A DNA stretch of 64,000 nucleotides from an uncultured Eggerthella sp. (lineage in GTDB: Bacteria > Actinomycetota > Coriobacteriia > Coriobacteriales > Eggerthellaceae). The stretch is from positions 17,547 through 81,546 of the forward strand of contig CATYMO010000002.1 in the NCBI GenBank assembly GCA_958409415.1, given 5' to 3'. The notes below the pieces were generated by a model. It was given only the letters and a program-made list of their open reading frames with translations, was not told the DNA's origin and did not search any database. Below are positions 1,877 to 28,432 of the stretch, one piece after another. Positions within the stretch are counted from its first letter, which is position 1; every line of letters begins with the position of its first letter. Made by a program: the position numbers and the translations under genes.

Positions 1877-3805
1877 ATGGAGATGATAGGATTTCTAATC
1901 CTCTTTCCTCTTGTTGTTGCCGCTCTCTTGCTGATCTTTCGGCAGAACAAGGTAAGAAATGCGATCGTGTGGGTTGCGAGCATCGTCATCATGGGCGCTT
2001 CTATTGCGTTCGTTGCGATGAACATCGGCACACCGGGGCAGTATTTCCTGTTCGAGTCCGTTGTGGTCGATTGGGCATCAATAGCTATCAGCGTGATCGT
2101 CGGCGCAATCGTTATCTTCTACAGCGTCAAGTATCGAAGGTTCTGGGTGCTGGGCCTTGCGGCCATCCAGCTTATCGGCACGCTCATCTTCGAGTTCGGA
2201 TGCGCACACGATATCGTGTGCACCCGCGGTCTCTATGTTGATTCGCTCTCGCTCATCATGACGCTCATCATCGGCCTTGTGGGCGCCGGCATCTGCATCT
2301 ACTCCATTGGCTACATGGAAGACTTCCAGGCTGAACATAAGCATGAAGCGGATCGCCGTCCGCGTTTCTTCGCGCTCATGTTCATCTTCCTTGCAGCGAT
2401 GTATGCGATCATCTTCTGCAACAATCTCATCTGGCTCTATGCTGGTTGGGAGATCACCACAGTTTGTTCCTTCCTCCTCATCGGCTACACCCGCACTGAG
2501 GAAGCGATCGCGAACGCATTCCGCCAGATCGTCATGAACATGGTCGGCGGCATCGCTTTTCTGGCTGCACTCTTCTTCATGGTGCTCGAATTCAACACCG
2601 TCGATTTCCTCGACTTCATCGTTATCGGCACGTTCGCGCCGGCGCTCGTGGTATTCCCGCTCACGTGCTTGAGCCTTGCGGGCATGACCAAAGCAGCGCA
2701 GATGCCGTTTCATACTTGGCTGTTGGGCGCTATGGTCGCGCCGACGCCCACGAGTGCGCTCCTGCATTCATCCACCATGGTGAAGGCGGGCGTATTCATG
2801 CTCATCAAGTGCGCACCCATCTATGCGGTGTCGTTCGGGCCCTCCATCTTCGTCATCTTGGTGGGTGGCCTTACGTTCCTGTTCTGCTCGTTCCTTGCCA
2901 TCTCGCAGGTGAATGCCAAGCGCGTGCTCGCATATTCGACCATCGCGAACCTTGGCCTCATCACGGCTTGCGCGGGCGTTGGTACCGCAGAGGCGATCTG
3001 GGCAGCGATCTTCCTCGTCATCTTCCACGCTATCGCGAAGAGCTTGCTCTTCCTGTGCGTGGGCACCGCAGAGCATCATATCGGCTCTCGTAACATCGAA
3101 GACATGGACACGCTCTTCGAGCGCATGCCGAAGCTCGCACGTCTTATGATGCTCGGTATCATGATCATGTTCATCGCGCCATTCGGTATGCTCATCGCGA
3201 AGTGGGCAACGCTCATTACGCTCATCGGAACGCGTCAGATCGCGCTCATCCTCATGCTGGCGTTCGGCTCAGCAGCTACCTTCATGTTCTGGGCGAAATG
3301 GCTCGGCAAGCTTGCGGGCATCGCAAGCGAGCCCGATAACGTGGAGGTCACCGTGCATAAGAGCGAATGGCTCTCGCTTGCGCTCATGGCGGTGCTCGCC
3401 GTGCTTGCTTGTGCGCTCATCCCGGTCATCTCGAACTTCATGGTCGAGCCTTATGTCAGCTCGATCCTCGGCATGAGCATCCAGCCGATCCGCGACGAGA
3501 ACCTCTATCTGTCCACCATCATCGTCTTGTTCATGGTGATCATGATGTTCGGCGTGCTGCGCAAGAACACGAAGGCGAAGAAGGCCAGCGTGTATCTCTC
3601 CGGCGTCTCGGTCGAGAATGAATCGCGCGTCTATTTGAATGCGCTCTCGAAACCGCAGGAGGCTACTGCGCGCAACTGGTACATGGAGGACTGGTTCGGC
3701 GAGGCGAAGCTCACGCCCGTTGGCACCATCATCTGCTACATTCTCATACTCATTGCATTCATCTGGGCGATCATCGCTACCATCGGATTCACGGCACTGT
3801 TCTAA
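1877..3805 (+). CDS. echA: Energy-converting [NiFe] hydrogenase membrane subunit EchA (NuoL/MnhA-like cation-translocating antiporter-type subunit)
   Basis: 642-aa polytopic membrane protein with NuoL/HyfB-like conserved segments; strong RBS AAAAGGAGGA upstream of the ATG; first gene of a six-gene operon. Confidence 0.8.
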   Translation: MEMIGFLILFPLVVAALLLIFRQNKVRNAIVWVASIVIMGASIAFVAMNIGTPGQYFLFESVVVDWASIAISVIVGAIVIFYSVKYRRFWVLGLAAIQLIGTLIFEFGCAHDIVCTRGLYVDSLSLIMTLIIGLVGAGICIYSIGYMEDFQAEHKHEADRRPRFFALMFIFLAAMYAIIFCNNLIWLYAGWEITTVCSFLLIGYTRTEEAIANAFRQIVMNMVGGIAFLAALFFMVLEFNTVDFLDFIVIGTFAPALVVFPLTCLSLAGMTKAAQMPFHTWLLGAMVAPTPTSALLHSSTMVKAGVFMLIKCAPIYAVSFGPSIFVILVGGLTFLFCSFLAISQVNAKRVLAYSTIANLGLITACAGVGTAEAIWAAIFLVIFHAIAKSLLFLCVGTAEHHIGSRNIEDMDTLFERMPKLARLMMLGIMIMFIAPFGMLIAKWATLITLIGTRQIALILMLAFGSAATFMFWAKWLGKLAGIASEPDNVEVTVHKSEWLSLALMAVLAVLACALIPVISNFMVEPYVSSILGMSIQPIRDENLYLSTIIVLFMVIMMFGVLRKNTKAKKASVYLSGVSVENESRVYLNALSKPQEATARNWYMEDWFGEAKLTPVGTIICYILILIAFIWAIIATIGFTALF

Positions 3806-3820
3806 GAAAGGAGGCACATC

Positions 3821-4702
3821 GTGGAAACGCTTATTTCAATTCTCATCACGCTCGGCGCCTCGGTTGTCTTCGCGATCGTCGGAACGGTGCTCGGTTGCTT
3901 GCTCTCAGGCATCGACCGCATTATCTCAGCTCGCATGCAAGGTCGTGTAGGACCGCCGCTGCTGCAGCCTCTCTATGATGTTCGCAAGCTGTTCGCTAAG
4001 GACAACGTGGCAGTGAACGGCACGATCGGCACCTATGTGGTCTGTGCGCTCATCTTCACGTTCCTTGCTGGCGGCATCTTCTTCTCAGGTGGGAACTTCC
4101 TTCTGTGCGTGTTCGTCATCACGCTTGCAGAGCTCATGTTCGTCATGGCAGCTTACGCATCGCGCTCGCCCTTCTCTGAAGCAGGCGCGCATCGCGAGAA
4201 CCTGCAGATCATGGCGTATGAGCCCATGGTGCTGTTGCTTGCGGTCGGCTTCTTCCAGGCGACGGGCAGCTTTGATATCGCGATCCTGCCGTTCTTAGAT
4301 TCGCCCATCATCTTCAGCCTGTGGGGCGTTTTCTTGGGAATGCTGTTCATTCTTACGATTAAATTGAGGAAATCTCCGTTCGATCTCTCATATTCACATC
4401 ATGCACATCAAGAACTGGTAAAAGGTGTAACTACCGAAATGTCGGGCAAGACCCTCGGTCAGATCGAGATCATGCACTGGTGCGAGAACATCCTCTACAT
4501 GGGTTGGATCGTGATGTTCTTCATCTGGGGCAACCCTGTTTCGATCGTAGTTGCGCTCATCGCGTTCATCCTGATCTACTTGCTTGAGATCTGGATCGAC
4601 AACAACTTCGCTCGTGTGAAATGGCAACTGGTGTTGAAATCGACCTGGATCGTCACGCTCGTTCTCGGTGGTATCAATATCCTTGTTCTTGCATTCCTGT
4701 AA
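3821..4702 (+). CDS. echB: Ech hydrogenase membrane subunit EchB (NuoH/HycD-like)
   Basis: 293-aa integral membrane protein; GTG start preceded by GAAAGGAGG; position and size match echB. Confidence 0.75.
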   Translation: METLISILITLGASVVFAIVGTVLGCLLSGIDRIISARMQGRVGPPLLQPLYDVRKLFAKDNVAVNGTIGTYVVCALIFTFLAGGIFFSGGNFLLCVFVITLAELMFVMAAYASRSPFSEAGAHRENLQIMAYEPMVLLLAVGFFQATGSFDIAILPFLDSPIIFSLWGVFLGMLFILTIKLRKSPFDLSYSHHAHQELVKGVTTEMSGKTLGQIEIMHWCENILYMGWIVMFFIWGNPVSIVVALIAFILIYLLEIWIDNNFARVKWQLVLKSTWIVTLVLGGINILVLAFL

Positions 4703-4711
4703 GGAGGTAAC

Positions 4712-5158
4712 ATGTCTTCTGTTTCAAAATCTCCTTGGATCATACATTACGACGGTTCGAGCTGTAACGGCTGCGATATCGAGGTGCTGGCCGCACTCAC
4801 TCCGCTCTATGATGTCGAGCGTTTTGGCATCATCAATACGGGTAACCCCAAACACGCCGATATCTTCCTGGTTACGGGTGGCGTCAACGAGCGCAATATC
4901 GACGTGGTCAAGGAAATCTACGATCAGATGGTAGAGCCGAAGGTGGTCGTTGCTTGCGGTGTCTGCGCTTGCACGGCGGGCATCTTCAAGGACTGCTACA
5001 ACATCATTGGCGGTGTCGATAAGGCTATCCCCGTTGATGTGTACGCGCCTGGTTGCGCGATCCGCCCTGAAGCCATCATCGATGCGGTGGTCGAAGGGAT
5101 CGGCATCCTTGAGGAAAAGTCGAAGAAGCTCAAAGAAGAGAAGAAGAAAGGGGCGTAA
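4712..5158 (+). CDS. echC: Ech hydrogenase small subunit EchC (NuoB-like, proximal [4Fe-4S])
   Basis: Cys ligand pattern CNGCD … GVCACTAG … PGCAIRP typical of NuoB/hydrogenase small subunits; RBS AAGGAGG. Confidence 0.85.
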   Translation: MSSVSKSPWIIHYDGSSCNGCDIEVLAALTPLYDVERFGIINTGNPKHADIFLVTGGVNERNIDVVKEIYDQMVEPKVVVACGVCACTAGIFKDCYNIIGGVDKAIPVDVYAPGCAIRPEAIIDAVVEGIGILEEKSKKLKEEKKKGA

Positions 5159-5163
5159 GCGTT

Positions 5164-5733
5164 ATGGAATTGAATGAAACGTTTGTCCCTCTTGCGCTCG
5201 AAGACCTGGTCGATACTGCGCGCGAATATAAGGAGCAGGGCTACCAACTGGCTCAGATGATGGGTGTGCTCAAAGAAGACGATACCGTCTGGCTTTACTA
5301 CACCTTCATCAAAGGCAACGAAGTCATCAATCGGCGCATCGAAGGGATCATCAAAGGTGAGACCGAGGTGCCTTCGCTCACGCCGCTCTATATCGCTATC
5401 TTCGTGAACGAAAACGAAGCTCACGATCTTTTTGGTGTGAACATCGTTGGCAATCTTATCGATTTCGAAGGTGCGTTCTACCGCTTCGCTGAAGGCGTTG
5501 AAGCTCCTATGAGCATCGTCTCGCCTGAGCAGCTCGCTGCGCGCGAGAAAGCGGCGAAGATCGCAAAGGCTAAGGCGGCTAAAGCAGCGAAAGCGGCAAA
5601 GGAGAAGGCGGCGAAAGAGGCTGAAGCAGCGAGCGCAGCCAGCGCTCCTACTGAAGAGCAGACCGAAGCCGCCAGCGCTCCCGCACCAGCGCCCGCTGAA
5701 GCTTCGGCGAACACGAACGAGGAAGGGGAGTAA
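5164..5733 (+). CDS. echD: Ech hydrogenase subunit EchD (NuoC-like) with a Lys/Ala/Glu-rich low-complexity C-terminal tail
   Basis: NuoC-like core (~120 aa) followed by AKAKAAKAAKAAKEKAAKEAEAASA…PAPAPAE repeats; operon position. Confidence 0.7.
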   Translation: MELNETFVPLALEDLVDTAREYKEQGYQLAQMMGVLKEDDTVWLYYTFIKGNEVINRRIEGIIKGETEVPSLTPLYIAIFVNENEAHDLFGVNIVGNLIDFEGAFYRFAEGVEAPMSIVSPEQLAAREKAAKIAKAKAAKAAKAAKEKAAKEAEAASAASAPTEEQTEAASAPAPAPAEASANTNEEGE

Positions 5734-5735
5734 CA

Positions 5736-6824
5736 ATGGCAAAAGCACAAGTCATTCCATTCGGGCCCCAGCATCCGGTTCTGCCTGAGCCGGTCCATCT
5801 CGACCTCGTGGTTGAAGACGAAACGGTTGTCGATGTTCTTCCTCAGATCGGATTCATCCATCGTGGTCTCGAAAAGCTCGTCGAGACGCGCGATATCCAT
5901 CAGTACATCTACGTTGCGGAGCGCATCTGCGGCATTTGTGCATTCGGTCATAGCTACGGCTATGCGCAAACGGTCGAGCGTCTTATGAACGTCGAGGTCC
6001 CGCCGCGTGCTGAATACTTGCGTGCGATCATGCATGAGCTTTCGCGTATACACTCCCATCTGCTGTGGATGGGTCTTGCAGCCGATGCGTTTGGTTTCGA
6101 GAGCTTGTTCATGCATTCTTGGCGCTTGCGTGAGCGTATCCTCGACATCTTCGAAGCAGTAGCTGGTGGACGCGTTATCTTGTCCTACACGCTCATCGGT
6201 GGCGTTACGAAGGATATCGATGCGCCCATGCTCCAGGCCATCAAGGATAAGCTCGCGAGTATCAAAGACGAATACAAGCAGATCTGCAATGCTTTCCTGA
6301 AAGACACGTCGGTGAAGAACCGCTTGGTGGGTGTGGGTTATATCGCACCAGAAGATGCGTTTGGCTATGGCATGGTCGGACCCTTCGCCCGTGCGAGCAA
6401 CTTGAACAACGATGTTCGCTGCCTGGGCATCGGCGCCTATGGCGATCTGGCAGAATTCAAGCCGATCCTCTCAACCGATGGCGATTGCTATGCCCGCGTT
6501 CAAGTGCGTGCTGAAGAGGTGCTGCAGTCCATCGACATCATCAACGAACTGATCGATAAGATCCCTGGTGGTGATTTCTACGTGCCCGTGAAGGGTGCGC
6601 CTGCTGCAGGAAGCGAAGCATGCAACATTCTTGAGCAGCCACGTGGCGAAGTGTATTACTACTGCTCTGGCAACGGTACGAAGAATCTCGAGCGCATGCG
6701 CATCCGCACCCCAACTACGCAGAATATCGCTGGCATGACCGTGGCGCTCAAAGGCTGCGACCTCGCCGATGTCAACATGATCGTTCTTACCATCGATCCT
6801 TGCATCAGCTGCACGGAAAGGTAG
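5736..6824 (+). CDS. echE: Ech hydrogenase [NiFe] large subunit EchE (NuoD-like)
   Basis: N-terminal RICGICAFGH (RxCGxCxxxH) and C-terminal DPCISCTER (DPCxxCxxR) Ni-Fe ligand motifs are read directly from the translation. Confidence 0.9.
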   Translation: MAKAQVIPFGPQHPVLPEPVHLDLVVEDETVVDVLPQIGFIHRGLEKLVETRDIHQYIYVAERICGICAFGHSYGYAQTVERLMNVEVPPRAEYLRAIMHELSRIHSHLLWMGLAADAFGFESLFMHSWRLRERILDIFEAVAGGRVILSYTLIGGVTKDIDAPMLQAIKDKLASIKDEYKQICNAFLKDTSVKNRLVGVGYIAPEDAFGYGMVGPFARASNLNNDVRCLGIGAYGDLAEFKPILSTDGDCYARVQVRAEEVLQSIDIINELIDKIPGGDFYVPVKGAPAAGSEACNILEQPRGEVYYYCSGNGTKNLERMRIRTPTTQNIAGMTVALKGCDLADVNMIVLTIDPCISCTER

Positions 6825-6828
6825 AGCA

Positions 6829-7302
6829 ATGGGATATTTCAAACTAGGAAAAATGACGCTCAAGTCGCTCTTCAAGCGCCCTGAGACCATTCGCTACCCG
6901 TATGAGACGAAGCCTCCTGTGGAGGATCTGAAGGGTCACGTAGAGAACGACATCGTCGAATGCACGCTCTGCGGCATCTGCGCCAAGCGTTGCCCAACGG
7001 GCTGCATCACGGTGGATAAAGAGGCGGAATCTTGGACGATCAACCCGTTCGATTGCATCCAGTGCCGCACGTGCGTGCGTGAATGCCCGCAGCACTGTCT
7101 TACCATGATGCCGGAGTATCGCAAGCCCGCCTTCGAGAAGGTCGTTTCGGTCACCACGAAACCTGAGCCTACTGAAGAAGAAAAAGCAGAGCTTGCACGT
7201 AAGGAAGCGGAAAAAGCTGCTAGAATTAAGGCGGCGTTGGAAGCGAAAGCTGCACGTGAAAAAGCCAAGCAGGAACAAGCTGGCCAAACGCCTGAAGCTT
7301 AG
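6829..7302 (+). CDS. echF: Ech hydrogenase 2x[4Fe-4S] ferredoxin-like subunit EchF (NuoI-like) with a Lys/Ala/Glu-rich C-terminal tail
   Basis: Two CxxCxxCxxxCP clusters (CTLCGICAKRCP, CIQCRTCVRECP); C-terminal KPEPTEEEKAELARKEAEKAARIKAALEAKAAREKAKQEQ tail. Confidence 0.85.
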   Translation: MGYFKLGKMTLKSLFKRPETIRYPYETKPPVEDLKGHVENDIVECTLCGICAKRCPTGCITVDKEAESWTINPFDCIQCRTCVRECPQHCLTMMPEYRKPAFEKVVSVTTKPEPTEEEKAELARKEAEKAARIKAALEAKAAREKAKQEQAGQTPEA

Positions 7303-7329: not shown

Positions 7330-7358
7330 CGGGCCTTTTAGAGGCCCGTTTCCTTTTT
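7330..7358 (+). terminator. Rho-independent terminator after the ech operon
   Basis: GC stem CGGGCC / GGCCCG with loop TTTTAGA, followed by a T-rich tract. Confidence 0.6.
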
Positions 7359-14290: not shown

Positions 14291-16018
14291 ATGGAATTTT
14301 TATCAGGTAATGAAGCGATCGCGCGTGGTGCGTGGGAAGCAGGGTGTCATATTGGCACTGCCTATCCAGGAACACCTTCTACCGAGACCATGGAAACCTT
14401 CGCAACGCTTCCTGGGGTCTACGCGGAATGGTGTCCGAACGAAAAGGTCGCGCTCGAGGTTGCGATGGGTGCTTCTGCAGCGGGTGCACGTGTGCTCGTT
14501 ACGATGAAGCACGTGGGCGTGAATGTGTGTGCCGATCCGCTTTTCACTGCCTCGTATACCGGCGTTAACGGTGGGGTGCTTTTGCTCGCCGCCGACGATC
14601 CGGGCATGTTCTCTTCGCAGAACGAGCAAGACAGTCGCTATTATGCCATGGCTTCTCTTGTACCCATTCTTGAGCCTGCCGATTCTCAGGAAGCGCTCGA
14701 TTTCGCACGCAGCGCCTACGATCTTTCCGAGCAGTTCGATGTTCCCTTCATGATGCGCTCTACCGTACGCATCTCGCACACGAAAACCCCTGTTGAAGTG
14801 GGGGAGCGCACCGAGGTTGAGAAGAAGCCTTACGAGAGCGACCCTACCAAATGGGTCATGATGCCCGCCTTCGCGAAGCCGCGCCGTAAGGTCGTGGTCA
14901 AGCGCACGGAAACGCTGAAGGAATGGGTGGAAACGTGCCCGTTCAATCGCGTGGAGAAGGGCGATACGAGCATCGGCATCATTTGCGCTGGTGCGGTCTA
15001 TGAGCATGTTAAGGAAGCTCTGGGTGACGTGAGCATCTTCAAGCTGGGTGTGACCTGGCCGCTGCCCGCAGACGCGCTCGCGCGATTTGCTGAGAGCGTG
15101 GATAAGGTGTACGTGGTCGAAGAGGCTTCGACCTATCTTTCGGATGCAGTACGTTCATGCGGTATCGCGCTCGATGAATTCGTTAACCCCTTGCCTGCCG
15201 ATGGCGAGGTTCATCCTGAAGATGTCCTGCGGGCGTTCGGAAAAGAAACTCCTGCGCACCTCGATACTCCTGGCGATGTTCCTAACCGTCCGCCTGCTCT
15301 TTGTGCGGGCTGCCCTCATCGTATCGTCTTTCGTGAGCTCGCACGCAACAAAGCCATCGTCACGGGTGATATCGGCTGCTATACGCTCGGCGCACTGCCG
15401 CCGCTCTCAGCCATGGATACTACGCTCGACATGGGCGCCTCTGTTTCGATGGCGCACGGCTTCGAGCTCGCAATGGCGGGAAGCGACCATCGTCCGATCG
15501 TGGGTGTGATCGGCGATTCCACGTTCGCGCATTCTGGCCTTTCGAGCCTCATCAACACGGTCTATAACAAGGGTGCTGGCACGATCTGCATCCTCGATAA
15601 TCGCACGACCGCCATGACCGGCCAGCAGGGCAATCCGTTCAATGGGGTGACGCTGCAAAACCGCGAGAGCAACGAGCTCGATCTACCCGTTGTCCTCGAT
15701 GCTATCGGCGTCGATCACGTGCAGGTGGTCGATGCGTTCGATCGTGATGCGGTACGGGGTGCGCTCAAAGAAGCGCTCGGCCGCGACGAACTTGACGTGA
15801 TCGTGTTCCGCGGTCCTTGCGTGCTGCTTTCTAAAACGAAGGATACGCCCTACTGCGTGAACGGGAACTGCACGGGCTGTGGTGTGTGTGTGACGCTGGG
15901 ATGCCCCGCAATTTCAACCGATCGCGAAACGGGCTTTTCGTCGATCGATACCGATATGTGCAATGGATGCTCGCAGTGCGCTCAGTACTGCGCGTTCGAT
16001 GCGATCGAGCGTCTGTAG
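14291..16018 (+). CDS. iorA: Indolepyruvate:ferredoxin oxidoreductase alpha subunit
   Basis: Characteristic N-terminus MEFLSGNEAIARGAWEAGCHIGTAYPGTPSTE; TPP motif GDIGCYTLG; C-terminal 2x[4Fe-4S] (CTGCGVCV…CPAI, CNGCSQCAQYC). Confidence 0.9.
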   Translation: MEFLSGNEAIARGAWEAGCHIGTAYPGTPSTETMETFATLPGVYAEWCPNEKVALEVAMGASAAGARVLVTMKHVGVNVCADPLFTASYTGVNGGVLLLAADDPGMFSSQNEQDSRYYAMASLVPILEPADSQEALDFARSAYDLSEQFDVPFMMRSTVRISHTKTPVEVGERTEVEKKPYESDPTKWVMMPAFAKPRRKVVVKRTETLKEWVETCPFNRVEKGDTSIGIICAGAVYEHVKEALGDVSIFKLGVTWPLPADALARFAESVDKVYVVEEASTYLSDAVRSCGIALDEFVNPLPADGEVHPEDVLRAFGKETPAHLDTPGDVPNRPPALCAGCPHRIVFRELARNKAIVTGDIGCYTLGALPPLSAMDTTLDMGASVSMAHGFELAMAGSDHRPIVGVIGDSTFAHSGLSSLINTVYNKGAGTICILDNRTTAMTGQQGNPFNGVTLQNRESNELDLPVVLDAIGVDHVQVVDAFDRDAVRGALKEALGRDELDVIVFRGPCVLLSKTKDTPYCVNGNCTGCGVCVTLGCPAISTDRETGFSSIDTDMCNGCSQCAQYCAFDAIERL

Positions 16019-16031
16019 AGGGGAGCGCGAT

Positions 16032-16616
16032 ATGAGCGATAAGACATTCACTATTTTGCTTTGCGGCGTTGGTGGTCAGGGGACGATCACTGCGGCCACG
16101 TTGCTCGCGCGTGTTGCGAGCGCGGCAGGGAAGTGCTGCAAGGTTTCTGAGATCCATGGTATGGCACAGCGTGGTGGCGCGGTCACCACGGTCGTACGTT
16201 TTGGCGATAACGTTTCTACGATGGTCTGTGACGAAGGCTGCGCTGATAACATCGTGTCGTTCGAGACCACCGAAGCGCTCCGCAACCTTGCTTATCTGAA
16301 GGAAGGCGGCGTGCTCGTCGTGAACGATGAGGAGATCAAGCCGCTTCCTGTGCTCACGGGCAAGGCCGAGATGCCCGCTCGTGCGCGTGAGCGTCTCGAT
16401 GAGCTGGGAGCAACGCTCATTCCTGCGAGCGAGCTCGCTCGCAGTGCAGGAACGGCGAAATGCGCAAATGTCGTGCTTCTTGGTGCGCTCGCAGTGAGCC
16501 TTCCATTCGAGTTTTCCCTTTGGGAAGAGGTCATTCGTAACAATGTCCCGCCCAAGACCATCGATATCAACCTCGAGGCATTCCATCTGGGTGCCAACTA
16601 TATGCAAGGAGAGTAG
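16032..16616 (+). CDS. iorB: Indolepyruvate:ferredoxin oxidoreductase beta subunit
   Basis: LLCGVGGQGTITAA pyruvate/2-oxoacid:Fd oxidoreductase gamma-type fold; ATG 14 nt after the iorA stop. Confidence 0.85.
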   Translation: MSDKTFTILLCGVGGQGTITAATLLARVASAAGKCCKVSEIHGMAQRGGAVTTVVRFGDNVSTMVCDEGCADNIVSFETTEALRNLAYLKEGGVLVVNDEEIKPLPVLTGKAEMPARARERLDELGATLIPASELARSAGTAKCANVVLLGALAVSLPFEFSLWEEVIRNNVPPKTIDINLEAFHLGANYMQGE

Positions 16617-22349: not shown

Positions 22350-22401
22350 TGCATGAGGGTGTGTAAGGGGTCGATTCCCTCTACCTTGTTGCAATAAAAA
22401 A

Positions 22402-22422
22402 GCCAAGACAGTCTGCCTTGGC
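22402..22422 (+). terminator. Possible terminator after the MATE gene
   Basis: Imperfect hairpin GCCAAGACAG / CTGCCTTGGC followed by a T-rich run. Confidence 0.35.
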
Positions 22423-22435
22423 CTAATAGTTTTCC

Positions 22436-22509
22436 TGGAGCGGGTGACGGGAATCGAACCCGCGTGACCAGCTTGGAAGGCTGGAGTTCTACCATTGAAC
22501 TACACCCGC
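22436..22509 (-). tRNA. tRNA-Gly (anticodon UCC)
   Basis: Reverse complement folds as a cloverleaf: GCGGGTG acceptor, anticodon loop CTTCCAA, TPsiC GGTTCGATTCC, CCA encoded. Confidence 0.85.
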
Positions 22510-22517
22510 AAAAAAAA

Positions 22518-22596
22518 TGGTCGGGATGACAGGATTCGAACCTGCGACATCCTGCTCCCAAAGCAGGCGCGCTACCAAACTGCGCCACATCCCGAC
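22518..22596 (-). tRNA. tRNA-Pro (anticodon UGG)
   Basis: Reverse complement has anticodon loop TTTGGGA with stem CCTGC/GCAGG and TPsiC GGTTCGAATCC; exact ends +/-2 nt. Confidence 0.8.
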
Positions 22597-22805
22597 GCGA
22601 TGTTAAAACATTATAGCAAAAATAACGATGTATTTTTCTCTATTCTATTAGCGGGATATACGCTTTTGACTGGGCGATATAGGCATTTTTAATAATGCTA
22701 TTCCGATTGACAATTAATACTATTGGATGTTTTCCGAGCAACTGCAAAGAATAGAACTACAGAGCCAAACGCGTTCTGTTCAATATGCGTCTGAAGGGAA
22801 GAGCT

Positions 22806-23663
22806 ATGCAAGTATCGGGTCACACACAAACTATCGCATTAATCGGTTCTCCAGTTAAGCATTCTTTATCACCAGCTATGCATACTCAATCATTCAATGA
22901 GTTGGGTGTAGATTGTGTTTATCTTGCATACGACATCGAACCACAAGATCTAGAGTCTGCTGCTGTAGGTATGAAGAACATGGGGTTTGCAGGGTATAAC
23001 GTTACTATGCCTTATAAAACATTCATTCCGAAATACCTTGACGAACTATCTGACGCAGCGGAATTGATGGGTGCGGTAAACACGGTTGCTATCAAGCAAG
23101 GAAAGGCCATTGGTTACAACACTGATGGTGCCGGGTTTATGAGAAACCTCAAAGAAAATGGTGTTGATGTTATCGGAAAGAAGATCACGATCGTTGGTGC
23201 AGGTGGTGCAGGATCGGCTATATACACTCAAGCGGCACTTGATGGCGTTGCTGCGATCGATGTCTACAACATCAAGGATAAATTCTTTGACGTGACTGCT
23301 GAACGTGTGGCGGAAGTTGCTGAGAAGACAGGCTGCAAAATGCGCCTTATCGATCTCGAAGATAAAGAATCACTCAAGCAATCTATTGCTGAATCAGCAT
23401 TGTTCGTTAATGCAACACGCGTTGGCATGGGAGATTTGGTTGATCAAAGCGTTATTTCGCCAGACTATCTTGCCGATGGTATAGCGGTTGCTGATACGGT
23501 TTATGAGCCGCGTAAGACCAAGCTTTTGAAGGACGCTGAAGCAAAAGGACTCAAAGCGATCTCAGGCTTGGGCATGCTGCTCTGGCAGGCCGCGATCGCT
23601 GAAGATATTTGGGTTGGTAAGGAAATGCCCACAAAGCTCATTGAAGAGAGGTTCTTCAACTAA
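22806..23663 (+). CDS. Shikimate/quinate 5-dehydrogenase family oxidoreductase (AroE/YdiB-like), lower-GC copy
   Basis: SLSPAMH…GYNVTMP…NTDGAGF…GAGGAGSAI motifs of the shikimate DH family; GC ~42-45% vs ~57% host; RBS GAAGGGAAG. Confidence 0.8.
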   Translation: MQVSGHTQTIALIGSPVKHSLSPAMHTQSFNELGVDCVYLAYDIEPQDLESAAVGMKNMGFAGYNVTMPYKTFIPKYLDELSDAAELMGAVNTVAIKQGKAIGYNTDGAGFMRNLKENGVDVIGKKITIVGAGGAGSAIYTQAALDGVAAIDVYNIKDKFFDVTAERVAEVAEKTGCKMRLIDLEDKESLKQSIAESALFVNATRVGMGDLVDQSVISPDYLADGIAVADTVYEPRKTKLLKDAEAKGLKAISGLGMLLWQAAIAEDIWVGKEMPTKLIEERFFN

Positions 23664-23767
23664 GGGTTGCAGCCATGGGTGCCTTCGAAGAGGACACCCA
23701 TGATTCATCTGTTTAGAATCTTCCCTTGCATTGATTTGGCAAGGGTCACAAAGAAAGGGAAATCATC

Positions 23768-24814
23768 ATGGCAATCAGACTAGCGGTTTTTGGGCTTAAT
23801 CAAGGCTCAAAGATAGCTCGTGATGCAAAGGCGAGCGAAGAGTTCGATCTGGTAGCAGTTGCAGGTTTTGGTCAGCAAGCTGAAGACGTTGCGGCAGAGC
23901 TTGATGTGTCGCTCTATGCAGATTTCAATGATCTTCTAAAAGAGGTGCCACTTGATGCAGTAGCGATTGCGCTTCCGAACGGACTTCATGTAAGTTCAAC
24001 GCGTGCATGTTTGGATGCGGGGGTTAAGAACATCCTATTGGAGAAGCCTATTGCTAATACGGTCGAAGAAGCGCAAGAGATCATTGCTATGTGCGATGAA
24101 GCAGGTGCGATGCTGCTCATCGGCCACCATCGTCGTTCTTCATCAAAGTATCTTTTCCTGCGTGATTTTATTGAATCAGGTAAGCTTGGTGATCTTGTTG
24201 GCGTGCAGGCCTCTTATGCGATCGCGAAACCGTATGCCTACTATGATGTCGAGTGGCATACCAAGAAAGGTGGCGGCCCGTTCCTTATCAATGCGATCCA
24301 TGATATCGATGACCTAAATTACACCACTGGTATGAAGGCTAATCGTGTCTATGCCGCGGCGCGTAATACGATCCGTGGTAATGAGATCGAAGACTCGGCC
24401 TCGATCGTTATTGAGTTCGAAAACGGCATTACAGCTACCTATTTTATTTCTGATGGCACACCAAGTCCTTGGAACTACGACTTAGCTGCAGAAGAGAATC
24501 ATTTCTTCAAGTGGTGCCCAGGCGAGAATAGTCTGCGTTTTTTCGGCACAAAAGGGTCGCTTGGATTCCCGAACATGGACTTCTATCATTACGCTGATGA
24601 CGATCATTATGGTTGGGGAGAAGAGTTGATCGCCGAACATTACGAGATAGAAAAGAACGATCCCATGACAGCCGAACTCGAGCATTTTGCCGATCTGTGT
24701 ACGGGGCGCGAGAGTAAACCTCGTTGTACAGGTGAAGACGGCATTACAACGCTCAAAGTCATCAATGCTATTCTTGAATCAGCAGAGACGCGTAAAGTTG
24801 TTGATATCAAATAA
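23768..24814 (+). CDS. Gfo/Idh/MocA-family NAD(P)-dependent oxidoreductase, lower-GC copy
   Basis: N-terminal Rossmann fold (AVFGLNQGS), EKP motif (LLEKPIANT), GHHRR segment; ~85% aa identity to 27019-28065. Confidence 0.8.
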   Translation: MAIRLAVFGLNQGSKIARDAKASEEFDLVAVAGFGQQAEDVAAELDVSLYADFNDLLKEVPLDAVAIALPNGLHVSSTRACLDAGVKNILLEKPIANTVEEAQEIIAMCDEAGAMLLIGHHRRSSSKYLFLRDFIESGKLGDLVGVQASYAIAKPYAYYDVEWHTKKGGGPFLINAIHDIDDLNYTTGMKANRVYAAARNTIRGNEIEDSASIVIEFENGITATYFISDGTPSPWNYDLAAEENHFFKWCPGENSLRFFGTKGSLGFPNMDFYHYADDDHYGWGEELIAEHYEIEKNDPMTAELEHFADLCTGRESKPRCTGEDGITTLKVINAILESAETRKVVDIK

Positions 24815-24872
24815 GCTATGATTTTATTCGGCAATTCTTTCTCGGATCAACGTTAAATAGAAAGCTCAATGA

Positions 24873-25793
24873 GTGAATTTTTCTCATCTAACATATTTCA
24901 AAAAGCTTGCAGAAGTGAAGCATTTCACGAAAGCTGCTTCAGAGCTTTACGTTTCGCAGCCAACGCTTTCTGCCGCTATTTCTTCGCTCGAAAAGGAACT
25001 AAATACCCGTTTGTTCTATCGTGCGAACAATAAGATAGAACTAACACCATGTGGAGAGGAATTCTATGATTACGTTTCTCGGGGATTGCGAATCATCGAG
25101 CAAGGAATTCAAGCTGTCGAAGAATATGAAGGGAAGATAAATGGAGCCTTGAACCTCGGTACGCTTTACGCGATACAGAGTAAAGATTGGTCGCAGGCGA
25201 TACAGTCCTTTCAAGACGAATGTGGAGCTGGTCTGACGATCAACATAACTCAGGGTTTCACCCCTTCTTTGTTTGAAGGACTAGAGTCAGGCAGATTGGA
25301 TGTCATCTTCGCAGGAAAGCCTCAAACTTCGAATAAATACAACTGTACCTATTGCTGGGCGCAGGAACTGGCAGTTGCAGTGAACAAGAGGCATCCCCTT
25401 GCGAAAAAGTCTGTCGTAACACTCGATGACTTGGCTGGATTTCACATTATTTCATACCATAAAGATTCACCAGTATACGATGAAATGGAAGCATTGCTTC
25501 AGCAGGCTGAATGCGAATTGGATGTCGAATATGCTTATAACGATGAGATCACTTTGTCTTCCCTGGTAAATTCAGATACCAATGATGTTGCATTATTGTG
25601 CTATTCGTTTTTGGTCAAGGCTTTTGACGATGTTGTCTATCTGCCTCTTCAAGATGCCCCTAGGGAGTTCCACAAAGTCTATCTGATTTCAAATAAAGCT
25701 ATTACGCAGCCAAGAGTTGTATCAGATTTTGTTACCTATATGAAAAACTACCATTTTCCAACTGCAACAGTACGTCCTTTGCAGAAAGAATAG
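24873..25793 (+). CDS. LysR-family transcriptional regulator
   Basis: N-terminal wHTH (HLTYFKKLAEVKHFTKAASELYVSQPTLSAAISSLEKEL) plus LysR substrate-binding domain; GTG start; low-GC codon usage. Confidence 0.8.
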   Translation: MNFSHLTYFKKLAEVKHFTKAASELYVSQPTLSAAISSLEKELNTRLFYRANNKIELTPCGEEFYDYVSRGLRIIEQGIQAVEEYEGKINGALNLGTLYAIQSKDWSQAIQSFQDECGAGLTINITQGFTPSLFEGLESGRLDVIFAGKPQTSNKYNCTYCWAQELAVAVNKRHPLAKKSVVTLDDLAGFHIISYHKDSPVYDEMEALLQQAECELDVEYAYNDEITLSSLVNSDTNDVALLCYSFLVKAFDDVVYLPLQDAPREFHKVYLISNKAITQPRVVSDFVTYMKNYHFPTATVRPLQKE

Positions 25794-26067
25794 GGAGGGG
25801 AAAGATAAGGCTGCATCAAGAATAAAGAATAACGGCATTATTTTTTCGCTGTAGTGAATGTAGTGAAAATCTTTGTATGGTATGTCTCATCCAGTTTTGA
25901 ATTGAATATTGTTTCTTAAGGCAAAGCAACAGTAAAGCAAACACTTCTACTGTATATCTCTATTTCATGGTAAAAATAGTAGGTGAATATCTTGCTATTT
26001 GTAGAGATTATTGGATATTGTTGGAACTGCATCATTGCAATATCTCAATAGAAGTAAAGGATCTGTT

Positions 26068-26928
26068 ATGCCTAATATCTCTGGCCACACGAAAACGATC
26101 TGTTTGATCGGCTCACCCGTGGAGCATTCGCTTTCACCAGCTATGCATACCTTCTCGTTCGAGCAACTTGGCGTCGATTGTGTGTACCTTGCTTACAATG
26201 TTGAGCCTGACCAGCTCGAAGCTGCTGTGAATGGCATGAAAGAGCTTGGGTTTCTTGGCTACAACGTCACCATGCCGCATAAGACCTATATTTCACGTTA
26301 TCTCGACGAGCTTTCGCCAGCTGCTGAGCTGATGGGTGCCATCAATACGGTAGTCATCAAAGATGGCAAAGCGATCGGTCATAACACCGATGGCGCGGGC
26401 TTCATGCGCAATATAGAAGAGAATGGCGTTGAGGTGGTTGGCAAGAAGGTCACGGTGATGGGTGCAGGTGGCGCTGCGATGGCTATCTATACTCAGGCTG
26501 CCCTCGATGGCGTTGCTGCGATCGATGTCTATAAACGAAAAAACGATTCATACGATGCTGCTGCAGAGCATGTTGCGCACATTGCTGAAAAAACTGGGTG
26601 CAACATTCGCTTGATCGATATGGCAGATAAAGAGGCTATGAAGGCTTCTATCGCTGAATCAGTATTACTCATCAATGCCACTAATGTGGGTATGGGCGAT
26701 CTGGAAGGAATAAGCGTTGTTCCTGCAGAACTTTTAGTTGAAGGTCTGGTTGTTGCAGACGTCATCTACGTGCCACGCAAGACGAAGTTGCTCGAAGATG
26801 CCGAAGCTAAGGGGCTCAAGACCATCAATGGTCTTGGCATGCTTCTGTGGCAAGCTGCTATCGCTGAAGATATTTGGGTAGGTAAGGAAATGCCTACGGA
26901 GCTGGTCCAAGAAAAATTCTTCGACTAA
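26068..26928 (+). CDS. Shikimate/quinate 5-dehydrogenase family oxidoreductase, host-GC copy
   Basis: Same motifs as 22806-23663 (~80-85% aa identity); RBS AAAGGA; internal ATG start chosen over the ORF start at 26011. Confidence 0.8.
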   Translation: MPNISGHTKTICLIGSPVEHSLSPAMHTFSFEQLGVDCVYLAYNVEPDQLEAAVNGMKELGFLGYNVTMPHKTYISRYLDELSPAAELMGAINTVVIKDGKAIGHNTDGAGFMRNIEENGVEVVGKKVTVMGAGGAAMAIYTQAALDGVAAIDVYKRKNDSYDAAAEHVAHIAEKTGCNIRLIDMADKEAMKASIAESVLLINATNVGMGDLEGISVVPAELLVEGLVVADVIYVPRKTKLLEDAEAKGLKTINGLGMLLWQAAIAEDIWVGKEMPTELVQEKFFD

Positions 26929-27018
26929 GAACGCGCTATTCGTGATCTCATGCATGGTGTTCAAGGGTAAACATCAGAAGAGTTTCAGATATACAAGGAA
27001 AAATGGAGGGGTAAGAAC

Positions 27019-28065
27019 ATGGCTATTAGATTTGCCGTATTCGGATTGAATCAGGGTTCGAAGATCGCACGCGATGCGAAGAAGAATCCCGATTATGATT
27101 TGGTGGCAGTTGCTGGTTTTGGTCAGCAAGCTGAAGATGTTGCTGCCGAGCTTGAGGTGCCGCTCTATGCGGATTATACCGAGCTGCTCAATGAGGTACC
27201 GCTCGATGCGGTTGCGATCGCGCTGCCGAATGGCCTGCATGTGAGCGCAACCCGTAATGCGCTCGACGCAGGTGTTCGTAATATCTTGCTCGAAAAGCCC
27301 ATTGCCAACACGGTAGAAGAAGCGAACGAGATCATTGCGATGTGCAAGGAGGCAGACGCCACGTTGCTTATCGGTCACCATCGTCGTTCTTCTACAAAGT
27401 ACTTGTTCCTGCGTGATTTTATCGCTTCGGGCAAGTTGGGCGATCTGGTCGGCGTTCAAGCCACGTATGCTATTGCGAAACCCTATAACTATTGGGATGT
27501 GGAATGGCACACGAAAAAGGGTGGCGGTCCGTTCCTCATCAATGCGATCCATGATATCGACGATCTTAACTACACCACCGGCATGAAGGTTACGCGCGTT
27601 TATGCCGCTGCACGCAATACGATCCGTGGTAACGAAGTCGAAGATTCTGCTTCTATCGTGATCGAATTCGATAATGGCGTTACGGCAACCTACTTCATCT
27701 CCGATGGCACGCCGGGTCCGTGGAACTATGACTTGGCTGCTGAGGAAAACCACTTCTTCCAGTGGTGTCCAGGCGAGAACAGCTTGCGCTTCTTCGGCAC
27801 GCAGGGTTCATTCGGTTTCCCGAATATGGATTTCTACCATTATGTTGACGATGATCATTATGGCTGGGCGGAGAAGCTTGTCACGGAGCACTTCGATGTC
27901 GAGAAGAACGACCCGATGACGGCAGAGATCGAGCATTTCGCAGACCTCTGTCTTGGGCGAGAAACGGTACCGCGCTGCACTGGCGAAGATGGCGTTGCAA
28001 CGCTCAAGGTCATCAATGCGATCCTTGAATCAGCGGAGACCGGTAAGCTCGTCGAAATCGACTAA
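27019..28065 (+). CDS. Gfo/Idh/MocA-family NAD(P)-dependent oxidoreductase, host-GC copy
   Basis: Collinear paralogue of 23768-24814 with higher GC and host-like codons. Confidence 0.8.
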   Translation: MAIRFAVFGLNQGSKIARDAKKNPDYDLVAVAGFGQQAEDVAAELEVPLYADYTELLNEVPLDAVAIALPNGLHVSATRNALDAGVRNILLEKPIANTVEEANEIIAMCKEADATLLIGHHRRSSTKYLFLRDFIASGKLGDLVGVQATYAIAKPYNYWDVEWHTKKGGGPFLINAIHDIDDLNYTTGMKVTRVYAAARNTIRGNEVEDSASIVIEFDNGVTATYFISDGTPGPWNYDLAAEENHFFQWCPGENSLRFFGTQGSFGFPNMDFYHYVDDDHYGWAEKLVTEHFDVEKNDPMTAEIEHFADLCLGRETVPRCTGEDGVATLKVINAILESAETGKLVEID

Positions 28066-28200
28066 GACACTTTCCTTTACTTCAATACAGCAGGAAAAGG
28101 CTCTCTTCGGGGAGCCTTTTCCTGTTTCGCGTTGTTTTTTCGTACTCGTGTGGCTTGCGGCAGACGCGATTGAATTCCTGGGCTATAATAATCACGTTTT

Positions 28201-28277
28201 GCGCCCATAGCTCAGCTGGATAGAGCAGTGGACTTCTAATCCAAAGGTCGTAGGTTCGAATCCTACTGGGCGCGCCA
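28201..28277 (+). tRNA. tRNA-Arg (anticodon UCU)
   Basis: GCGCCCA acceptor, D-loop AGCTCAGCTGGATAGAGC, anticodon loop CTTCTAA, TPsiC GGTTCGAATCC, CCA encoded. Confidence 0.85.
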
Positions 28278-28432
28278 TGAACATTCTCTGCCTGCTTCGA
28301 GCAGGCTCTTTTTATCATGTATGTTTGTCATGGTAAACTTTATTTCATTGACACTGCTCATAATGCTGATAACATATGAACAGATGCTCATATGTAAGCT
28401 ATTAGAATAACGCTTTAGTAAAGAGGAACCGT

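Follow-up and report, generated by a model that had tools for sequence, protein, structure and literature searches.

Positions 1877–7302 of the 64,000-nucleotide stretch analysed here (the window), which belongs to an uncultured Eggerthella sp. of the human gut, carry on the forward strand six open reading frames (ORFs) in the order echABCDEF, encoding NuoL-, NuoH-, NuoB-, NuoC-, NuoD/[NiFe]- and NuoI-like subunits. We interpret them as a single operon for a membrane-bound, six-subunit energy-converting [NiFe] hydrogenase of the Ech type, with the architecture of HydDB group 4e, and assign this sequence-based interpretation a probability of about 85%. An enzyme of this type had been proposed from the DNA letters alone (the original prediction), and that identity agrees with which subunits are encoded and in what order, with the metal ligands and with the antiporter residues. 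The canonical order and tight spacing of the six genes are borne out by the ORF coordinates, by Pfam families that each exceed the gathering score, and by intergenic gaps of 2–15 nt (15, 9, 5, 2 and 4 nt in order from echA to echF). The strong ribosome-binding sites that had been predicted were found as AAGGAGG-type sequences 5' of echA, echB and echC; those 5' of echD, echE and echF are G-rich.

The [NiFe] large subunit is encoded by echE (5736–6824, 362 aa; Pfam Complex1_49kDa, 9.6e-52; NiFeSe_Hases, 1.9e-15). Both Ni-Fe motifs named in the original prediction are present: the L1 motif RICGICAFGH spans residues 63–72 and the L2 motif DPCISCTER residues 354–362, the last nine of the protein, and the two CxxC pairs supply the four Ni-Fe cysteines. 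A NuoD-like loss of these ligands had been named beforehand as an observation that would speak against a hydrogenase; EchE retains them, as do 78 of 79 orthologues. The end of EchE aligns with the cleavage-site arginine of HycE (R537), and there is no C-terminal extension. In comparisons with the Protein Data Bank (PDB), MbhL (6cfw_L, 7.3e-70) and HycE (7z0s_E, 8.6e-63) rank above the NuoD chains. None of the PDB matches to EchE was named as an Ech structure, and MbhL and HycE lead because no closer solved structure is among them.

The membrane subunits required of a group 4 enzyme are represented by one NuoL-type and one NuoH-type protein (Pfam Proton_antipo_M and NADHdh), of which EchA was the one aligned for charged residues. 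EchA (1877–3805, 642 aa) is a NuoL/Mrp-antiporter-like protein (Proton_antipo_M, 1.3e-50; Proton_antipo_N) with about 16 hydrophobic segments by hydropathy, and it matches the NCBIfam models for NuoL, MrpA and HyfD, all under their cut-offs. Its residues E192, K272, H297, H384, K388 and K442 align with E144, K229, H254, H338, K342 and K399 of E. coli NuoL; since these charged residues are retained, the transport module looks intact. EchB (3821–4702, 293 aa, GTG start) is NuoH/HycD-like (NADHdh, 9.7e-38) and 29% identical to E. coli HycD.

EchC (4712–5158, 148 aa; Pfam Oxidored_q6, 3.7e-28) is the NuoB-like hydrogenase small subunit and scores 137 bits against NCBIfam NF005012, a NuoB subfamily with a cut-off of 116. 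The NuoB-type cluster ligands predicted for it are confirmed by alignment with HycG and NuoB, in which C18, C21, C85 and C115, forming one [4Fe-4S] site, are invariant; the protein ends in a short Lys/Glu tail. EchF (6829–7302, 157 aa) is a NuoI-like subunit for two [4Fe-4S] clusters that matches several Pfam Fer4 families and contains two CxxCxxCxxxCP motifs, CTLCGICAKRCP and CIQCRTCVRECP; two motifs of this kind are present in 73 of 76 EchF orthologues. EchD (5164–5733, 189 aa) consists of a NuoC-like core of ~110 aa (Pfam Complex1_30kDa, a weak match of 29.9 bits against a cut-off of 22.5) and a tail of ~80 aa.

Related loci were collected from a set holding one genome per species. tblastn confirmed 280 stretches, and the best 80, which represent 80 distinct loci, were fetched. 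All six genes occur in the same order and on the same strand in 72 of the 80; the other eight are truncated contigs, so that the arrangement holds for 72/72 complete loci. The pattern RICGICA[FTM]GH is kept in 78 of 79 EchE orthologues and DPC[IL]SC[TS]ER in all 79, a C-terminal extension occurs in none of the 79, and the Fe-S ligands are conserved as strongly as the Ni-Fe motifs. EchE is 100% identical to proteins from contigs of 'Eggerthella sp. CAG:298' and UMGS468/UMGS26 and 93% identical to that of Anaerotardibacter muris (Eggerthellaceae, Coriobacteriia, Actinomycetota in the NCBI taxonomy), which agrees with the actinobacterial context proposed originally. Identities of 73–87% were found in Cryptobacterium-labelled bins, Raoultibacter, Gordonibacter, Adlercreutzia, Paraeggerthella, Enteroscipio and Rubneribacter. 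Several metagenome-assembled genome (MAG) bins with Eggerthellaceae ech synteny and 79–84% EchE identity (L030–L033, L035, L038–L040, L067 and L071) bear the names of unrelated taxa, including Escherichia coli, Prevotella, Succinivibrio, Alloprevotella, Melainabacteria and Methanomethylophilaceae; these bins are probably mislabelled or contaminated.

The ech genes are thus an old, native and selectively maintained operon of the Eggerthellaceae and not a rarity there. The statement that such an enzyme is uncommon in Actinomycetota is correct at the level of the phylum only; within the family it is widespread. Close homologues have already been named 'ech hydrogenase subunit E' by the Joint Genome Institute (JGI) and NCBI, for instance that of Cryptobacterium curtum DSM 15641 (73% identical), and PMC10234575 speaks of an 'energy-conserving hydrogenase (Ech) complex' in E. 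lenta DSM 2243. Our literature search returned neither biochemical nor genetic studies of Ech from any member of the Coriobacteriia. Because it is conserved across the family and already annotated, we regard the system as ordinary rather than new, that is, as the re-discovery of an annotated yet uncharacterised enzyme of known kind, known family distribution and ordinary architecture.

Beyond the Eggerthellaceae, the closest named relative is the ech operon on pNP243 of Butyrivibrio fibrisolvens, which has the same gene order and subunits A to F of 647, 287, 150, 190, 359 and 128 aa, compared with 642, 293, 148, 189, 362 and 157 aa in the window. Identity to the window proteins is highest for EchC (66%) and EchE (55.5%), followed by EchB (45%), EchF (42%) and EchA (38%). 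Butyrivibrio EchE likewise has CGIC, a terminal DPCISCTER and no C-terminal extension, and its EchD also ends in an Ala/Glu/Lys-rich tail. The surroundings differ: on pNP243, ech stands between hypA and the genes hypF-hypC-hypD-hypE (L081, 4457–15752), making ech plus hyp a self-contained hydrogenase module on a 243-kb non-mobilizable plasmid or chromid, whereas in the window and the 80 Eggerthellaceae loci ech has no hyp gene within 10 kb. The hosts differ as well, Butyrivibrio being a sugar-fermenting member of the Lachnospiraceae, whereas E. lenta does not metabolise sugars (PMC10234575). Butyrivibrio and Pseudobutyrivibrio Ech is treated as a ferredoxin-dependent, ion-pumping hydrogenase with a role in H2 formation and energy conservation (PMC4478896, PMC11187502). 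The enzyme of Pseudobutyrivibrio ruminis has been studied biochemically.

The prototype of group 4e, the Ech of Methanosarcina barkeri and M. mazei, was compared by description. It has the same six-subunit core with one antiporter-like subunit and is ferredoxin-linked, proton-translocating and reversible (PMC9356269), and its large subunit likewise lacks a C-terminal peptide (PMC12134894). The closest solved structures, Pyrococcus furiosus Mbh (6CFW) and E. coli formate hydrogenlyase (FHL; 7Z0S), match along the whole of EchE and share the module layout of NuoB, C, D, I, H and L. Mbh, in contrast, has 14 subunits including an Mrp-type module that the window operon lacks, and FHL has HycB, FdhF, a fused NuoC-NuoD large subunit, a 32-aa C-terminal peptide and the HycI protease, all of them absent from the window ech. 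Complex I provides homologues of all six subunits (NuoB, C, D, H, I and L), and NuoD, NuoB and NuoL are the top-scoring NCBIfam models; however, NuoD has lost the four Ni-Fe cysteines that EchE keeps, and NuoA, E, F, G, J, K, M and N have no counterpart in the window.

EchD (residues ~110–189) and EchF (residues ~105–157, about 50 aa) both end in Ala/Lys/Glu-rich low-complexity tails, that of EchF being charged. EchD tail length differs greatly among relatives, with ORFs of 148 to ~356 aa (examples are L071, 8928–9998; L024, 9300–9998; and L058, 9274–9999), a few still longer calls being start-codon over-extensions. In many genera the EchD tail contains tandem copies of a motif near (L/I)AG(M/L)DPEKAAKVRAAMEAKAKK, with 0–2 copies per protein by a strict pattern and up to ~5 by eye in the longest tail (L071); the EchF tail, that of the window included, has a single DPEKAAKVRAAMEAKAKK-like stretch. 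Throughout the window and the 80 loci, translated in all six frames, the motif is confined to these two tails, a protein database search with the EchD repeat matched only Eggerthellaceae EchD fragments, and no Pfam family matched it; it was seen only in Eggerthellaceae tails, a difference from Butyrivibrio. A kinship with the six C-terminal repeats of E. coli RsxC was considered and dropped (best domain 2.6 bits, with 8 of 300 composition-matched shuffles as good). We speculate that the Lys/Ala-rich tails of EchD and EchF could act as electrostatic tethers for acidic ferredoxins.

The C-terminus of EchD is nearly always xGE, with EGE in 51 of 74 proteins. As a protein motif this was ruled out, since the last echD codons, GAA GGG GAG, are at the same time the echE Shine-Dalgarno sequence, GGAAGGGGAG-TAA-nn-ATG, lying 2–5 nt before the echE ATG (5719–5738 in the window and the same position in the 80 loci). 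The conservation of EGE is attributed to a translational-coupling constraint at the DNA level.

The operon is bounded by further signals. In the 157-nt gap 5' of echA, a consensus scan returned a promoter-like site on the forward strand (ATGAGA-17-TATTAT, 1822–1850) with a 9/12 match; such sites are not above shuffle expectation in this region, and we regard it only tentatively as the ech promoter. An intrinsic terminator on the same strand (7330–7358) begins 28 nt past the echF stop, with an 8-bp stem containing six G-C pairs followed by a T-rich run. It heads the list of sites, is the richest in G-C pairs among stems of 8–9 pairs, and divides ech from the downstream gene for a CDP-alcohol phosphatidyltransferase. 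Rfam and tRNA scans gave no match in the ech region. The G+C content of the operon (54.5%) is close to that of the window (53.8%), and we therefore do not consider ech a recent import.

Between 7376 and 18429 the genes following ech are those for the CDP-alcohol phosphatidyltransferase, a VanW/G5 protein, a PaaK-like ligase, an ACT protein, a 517-aa ORF on the minus strand, IorA/IorB, a second ACT protein and a second PaaK-like ligase. The two ligases are 46% identical to each other, and the 517-aa ORF has no Pfam match. Gene order downstream of echF is conserved across genera (loci L001–L080). A ferredoxin-dependent 2-oxoacid oxidoreductase, IOR, thus recurs in the vicinity of Ech, though the terminator and unrelated genes stand between them. 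Farther downstream, a stretch of low G+C content (~22400–28300; 45.8% against 53.8% for the window) lies between tRNA-Gly/tRNA-Pro (22436–22594) and tRNA-Arg (28201–28277). It holds, around a LysR regulator, two copies of a gene pair for a shikimate-dehydrogenase-like protein and a GFO/IDH/MocA oxidoreductase, 71% and 85% identical from one copy to the other, and may be an acquired, duplicated island.

The subgroup was approached by comparison with large subunits from outside the family. A search of 50%-identity cluster representatives returned mostly unnamed metagenome proteins; labels found on looking up the clusters were JGI 'ech hydrogenase subunit E', 'Ni,Fe-hydrogenase III large subunit' and, once, 'carbon monoxide-induced hydrogenase'. 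Two look-ups of representative clusters contained no Methanosarcina, Thermoanaerobacter or Desulfovibrio entries, and a source could be established for a few of the best 150 representatives, with no archaeal relative prominent in that subset. The two nearest representatives lie on contigs too short for a view of the operon; P0121 looks chimeric and P0130 is an EchD-EchE fusion adjoining EchC. A neighbor-joining (NJ) distance tree was built from 89 full-length representatives and references, without branch support and without a Methanosarcina sequence. In it, EchE of the window groups with Butyrivibrio EchE and the JGI-named EchE representatives P0130 and P0181, apart from E. coli HycE, P. furiosus MbhL and the 'carbon monoxide-induced hydrogenase' group; the CooH-like representative P0215 sits in another clade. 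This tree is supportive of the subgroup, not decisive. It also contains a neighbouring Ech-like clade that lacks one or both Ni-Fe cysteine motifs (P0141, P0192, P0167, P0158, P0170, P0231 and P0247). Its members are probably degenerate and not hydrogenases, and at least one of them, P0141, is nevertheless named 'ech hydrogenase subunit E' by JGI.

Assignment to HydDB group 4e is supported by the architecture, the absent extension, the rough tree and names based on KEGG Orthology, and in this sense is a call from sequence features. Group 4e is defined by a six-subunit core (PMC9356269), and echABCDEF encodes just such a core, with a single antiporter-like subunit and no Mrp module. In groups 4e and 4c, unlike other [NiFe] hydrogenases, the large subunit has no C-terminal peptide to be removed during maturation (PMC12134894); the same is true of EchE and its 79 orthologues. 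Among NCBIfam models, those for NuoD, NuoL, NuoH, NuoC and NuoI stay below their cut-offs with the ech proteins (the NuoD models give EchE 289 bits against 360 and 245 bits against 459), and only the NuoB subfamily is exceeded, a pattern attributed to a relative of complex I that is not complex I.

Gene content and order, the ligands, the retained transport residues and the conservation throughout the family are read directly from the sequences. From homology with the Ech of Methanosarcina, Thermoanaerobacter and Pseudobutyrivibrio, with Mbh and with complex I, we infer the ferredoxin partner, the pumped ion, the direction in vivo and the route of maturation. Reduced ferredoxin would dock at the cytoplasmic arm, and its electrons would travel by way of the two [4Fe-4S] clusters in EchF and then the one in EchC, reaching the Ni-Fe site in EchE and reducing two protons to H2 there. 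This reaction would drive the translocation of ions, H+ or Na+ and most likely H+, through EchB and the sole antiporter-like subunit EchA. Oxidation of ferredoxin with evolution of H2 is the canonical direction of an Ech; the enzyme class is reversible, and in reverse H2 and the membrane potential can yield reduced ferredoxin.

For its Ni-Fe cofactor the enzyme would depend on Hyp proteins from genes in another part of the genome. As had been stated originally, the window is free of hyp and hyc maturation genes: Pfam detected none in ORFs of at least 77 aa, leaving out five tRNA-overlapping ORFs of 77–106 aa, and tblastn of the window with Butyrivibrio HypA, HypC, HypD, HypE and HypF and with E. 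coli HypA–HypE, HycI and HycH gave no match. In Gordonibacter urolithinfaciens, a member of the same family, a preprint finds hypA, B, C, D and E scattered over several loci. The suggested search for a maturation endopeptidase has become moot. EchE ends at the residue aligned with R537 of HycE, and because it has no C-terminal peptide no such enzyme is expected; a C-terminal processing protease would not be needed.

Several points weigh against an active Ech of group 4e. None of the 80 related loci has hyp genes within 10 kb of ech. No biochemical or genetic study of the enzyme in any Coriobacteriia was found, and the sole study of H2 production in the family, the G. urolithinfaciens preprint, tracked a different [NiFe] enzyme, with [FeFe] hydrogenases also induced. 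Outside the Coriobacteriia and Butyrivibrio, the best full-length relatives of EchE are at most 44% identical and the deep branches of the NJ tree are short and star-like, so that the subgroup call leans heavily on architecture. The operon might encode another group 4 enzyme, either CO-induced (4c), a formate hydrogenlyase (4a) or an Mrp-linked Mbh-type hydrogenase (4b, 4d or 4f). In line with this, EchE is ~35–44% identical to any reference beyond the Butyrivibrio/Coriobacteriia clade, its best matches of solved structure are MbhL (4d) and HycE (4a), and 4c enzymes too have no C-terminal peptide (PMC12134894). Against it, Pfam scans of the 64-kb window, with tblastn for the Hyc proteins, revealed neither another antiporter-like or Mrp gene nor HycB, HycH, HycI, a formate dehydrogenase, CooS or CooF. 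Separate genes encode EchD and EchE, unlike the NuoC-NuoD fusion of the HycE type, and EchE ends without the C-terminal extension of 20–40 aa that relatives from the HycE clade carry; formate hydrogenlyase was rejected on these grounds and on the failure of HycB, HycH and HycI to find a match by tblastn. CO-induced hydrogenase genes are ordered cooMKLXUH. The order here is A-B-C-D-E-F (L-H-B-C-D-I in Nuo terms), and with no CODH/CooF-type gene in the window this candidate, too, was rejected. Together with the position of the window sequence in the tree, away from HycE, MbhL and the 'carbon monoxide-induced hydrogenase' representatives, these observations make another subgroup very unlikely. 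We consider it extremely improbable that the operon specifies a complex-I-like or degenerate Ech-like module without H2 chemistry, through loss of Ni ligands or of the maturation machinery. Such modules exist, both as the large subunits without Cys ligands in nearby clades (P0141, P0192, P0167 and others) and as one cluster in Moorella (PMC4320612), and the distance of hyp genes from ech would be compatible with one. However, the four Ni-Fe cysteines and all Fe-S ligands of the window proteins are intact and strongly conserved across genera, hypA, B, C, D and E are present and expressed at their dispersed loci in G. urolithinfaciens, and Coriobacteriia also carry group 1i [NiFe] hydrogenases that need Hyp proteins (PMC9686372, PMC5037454). 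A complex I NuoD type was rejected on the intact cysteines, the NuoD scores below cut-off and the lack of further nuo genes in the window.

A different question is the direction in which an Ech of group 4e would work. Ech is reversible in vitro, and H2-dependent reduction of ferredoxin is its role in some methanogens and acetogens (PMC9356269). The Eggerthellaceae are largely non-fermentative, respiring organisms, and it is possible, though on balance doubtful, that in them the enzyme runs mainly in reverse, using H2 and the membrane potential to provide ferredoxin for reductive carboxylations, such as pyruvate formation from acetyl-CoA by PFOR and arylpyruvate formation from aryl-CoA by IOR, much as in Methanosarcina barkeri biosynthesis. 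E. lenta has been proposed to assimilate acetate by PFOR-dependent pyruvate synthesis, which needs low-potential electrons (PMC10234575), and reductive metabolism in Eggerthellaceae is stimulated by H2. IOR (14291–16616), the two PaaK-like aryl-CoA ligases and the ACT-domain proteins lie 3–11 kb downstream of ech, and of the 53 related loci that extend far enough past echF, 47 have IorA there. However, the terminator and two unrelated genes (those for the CDP-alcohol phosphatidyltransferase and VanW) stand between ech and the IOR cluster, so that the linkage may be mere conserved gene order of the family. Reduced ferredoxin could instead come from Rnf, which E. lenta also has (PMC10234575). 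Furthermore, G. urolithinfaciens evolves H2 from pyruvate, and a route from ferredoxin to H2 thus exists in the family. According to the preprint this proceeds via PFOR, with induction of hyp and hydrogenase genes, including those of [FeFe] hydrogenases. Its [NiFe] enzyme was considered as a possible Ech and rejected: the Hyd-L/Hyd-S primers had no match, allowing up to four mismatches, in the fetched ech genes, those of other Gordonibacter included, and because the primers miss ech the preprint cannot serve as evidence for Ech function. The forward and reverse roles are compatible, and one does not exclude the other. They could be joined in a scheme that we offer as a rather improbable one, in which Ech forms the cytoplasmic half of an internal H2 circuit. 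Ech would take electrons from ferredoxin that PFOR or IOR had reduced and form H2, an outward-facing group 1i uptake hydrogenase would re-oxidise this H2 for the many respiratory reductases of the family, which may include the catechol, urolithin and steroid dehydroxylases, and abundant H2 would reverse Ech to supply anabolic ferredoxin, with the EchD and EchF tails tethering acidic ferredoxins.

As a genomic observation, the ech operon of the window restates what is already annotated and does not represent a new kind of system. In human gut metagenomes, group 4e hydrogenase genes are moderately abundant and transcribed and have been flagged as needing functional study (PMC12578642). Since transformation tools for E. 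lenta exist (PMC9734109), the role of Ech has become genetically testable. The Eggerthellaceae carry out H2-stimulated transformations of drugs, steroids and polyphenols, and their intact Ech, strongly conserved throughout the family, is a concrete candidate for what ties their ferredoxin-level metabolism to H2.

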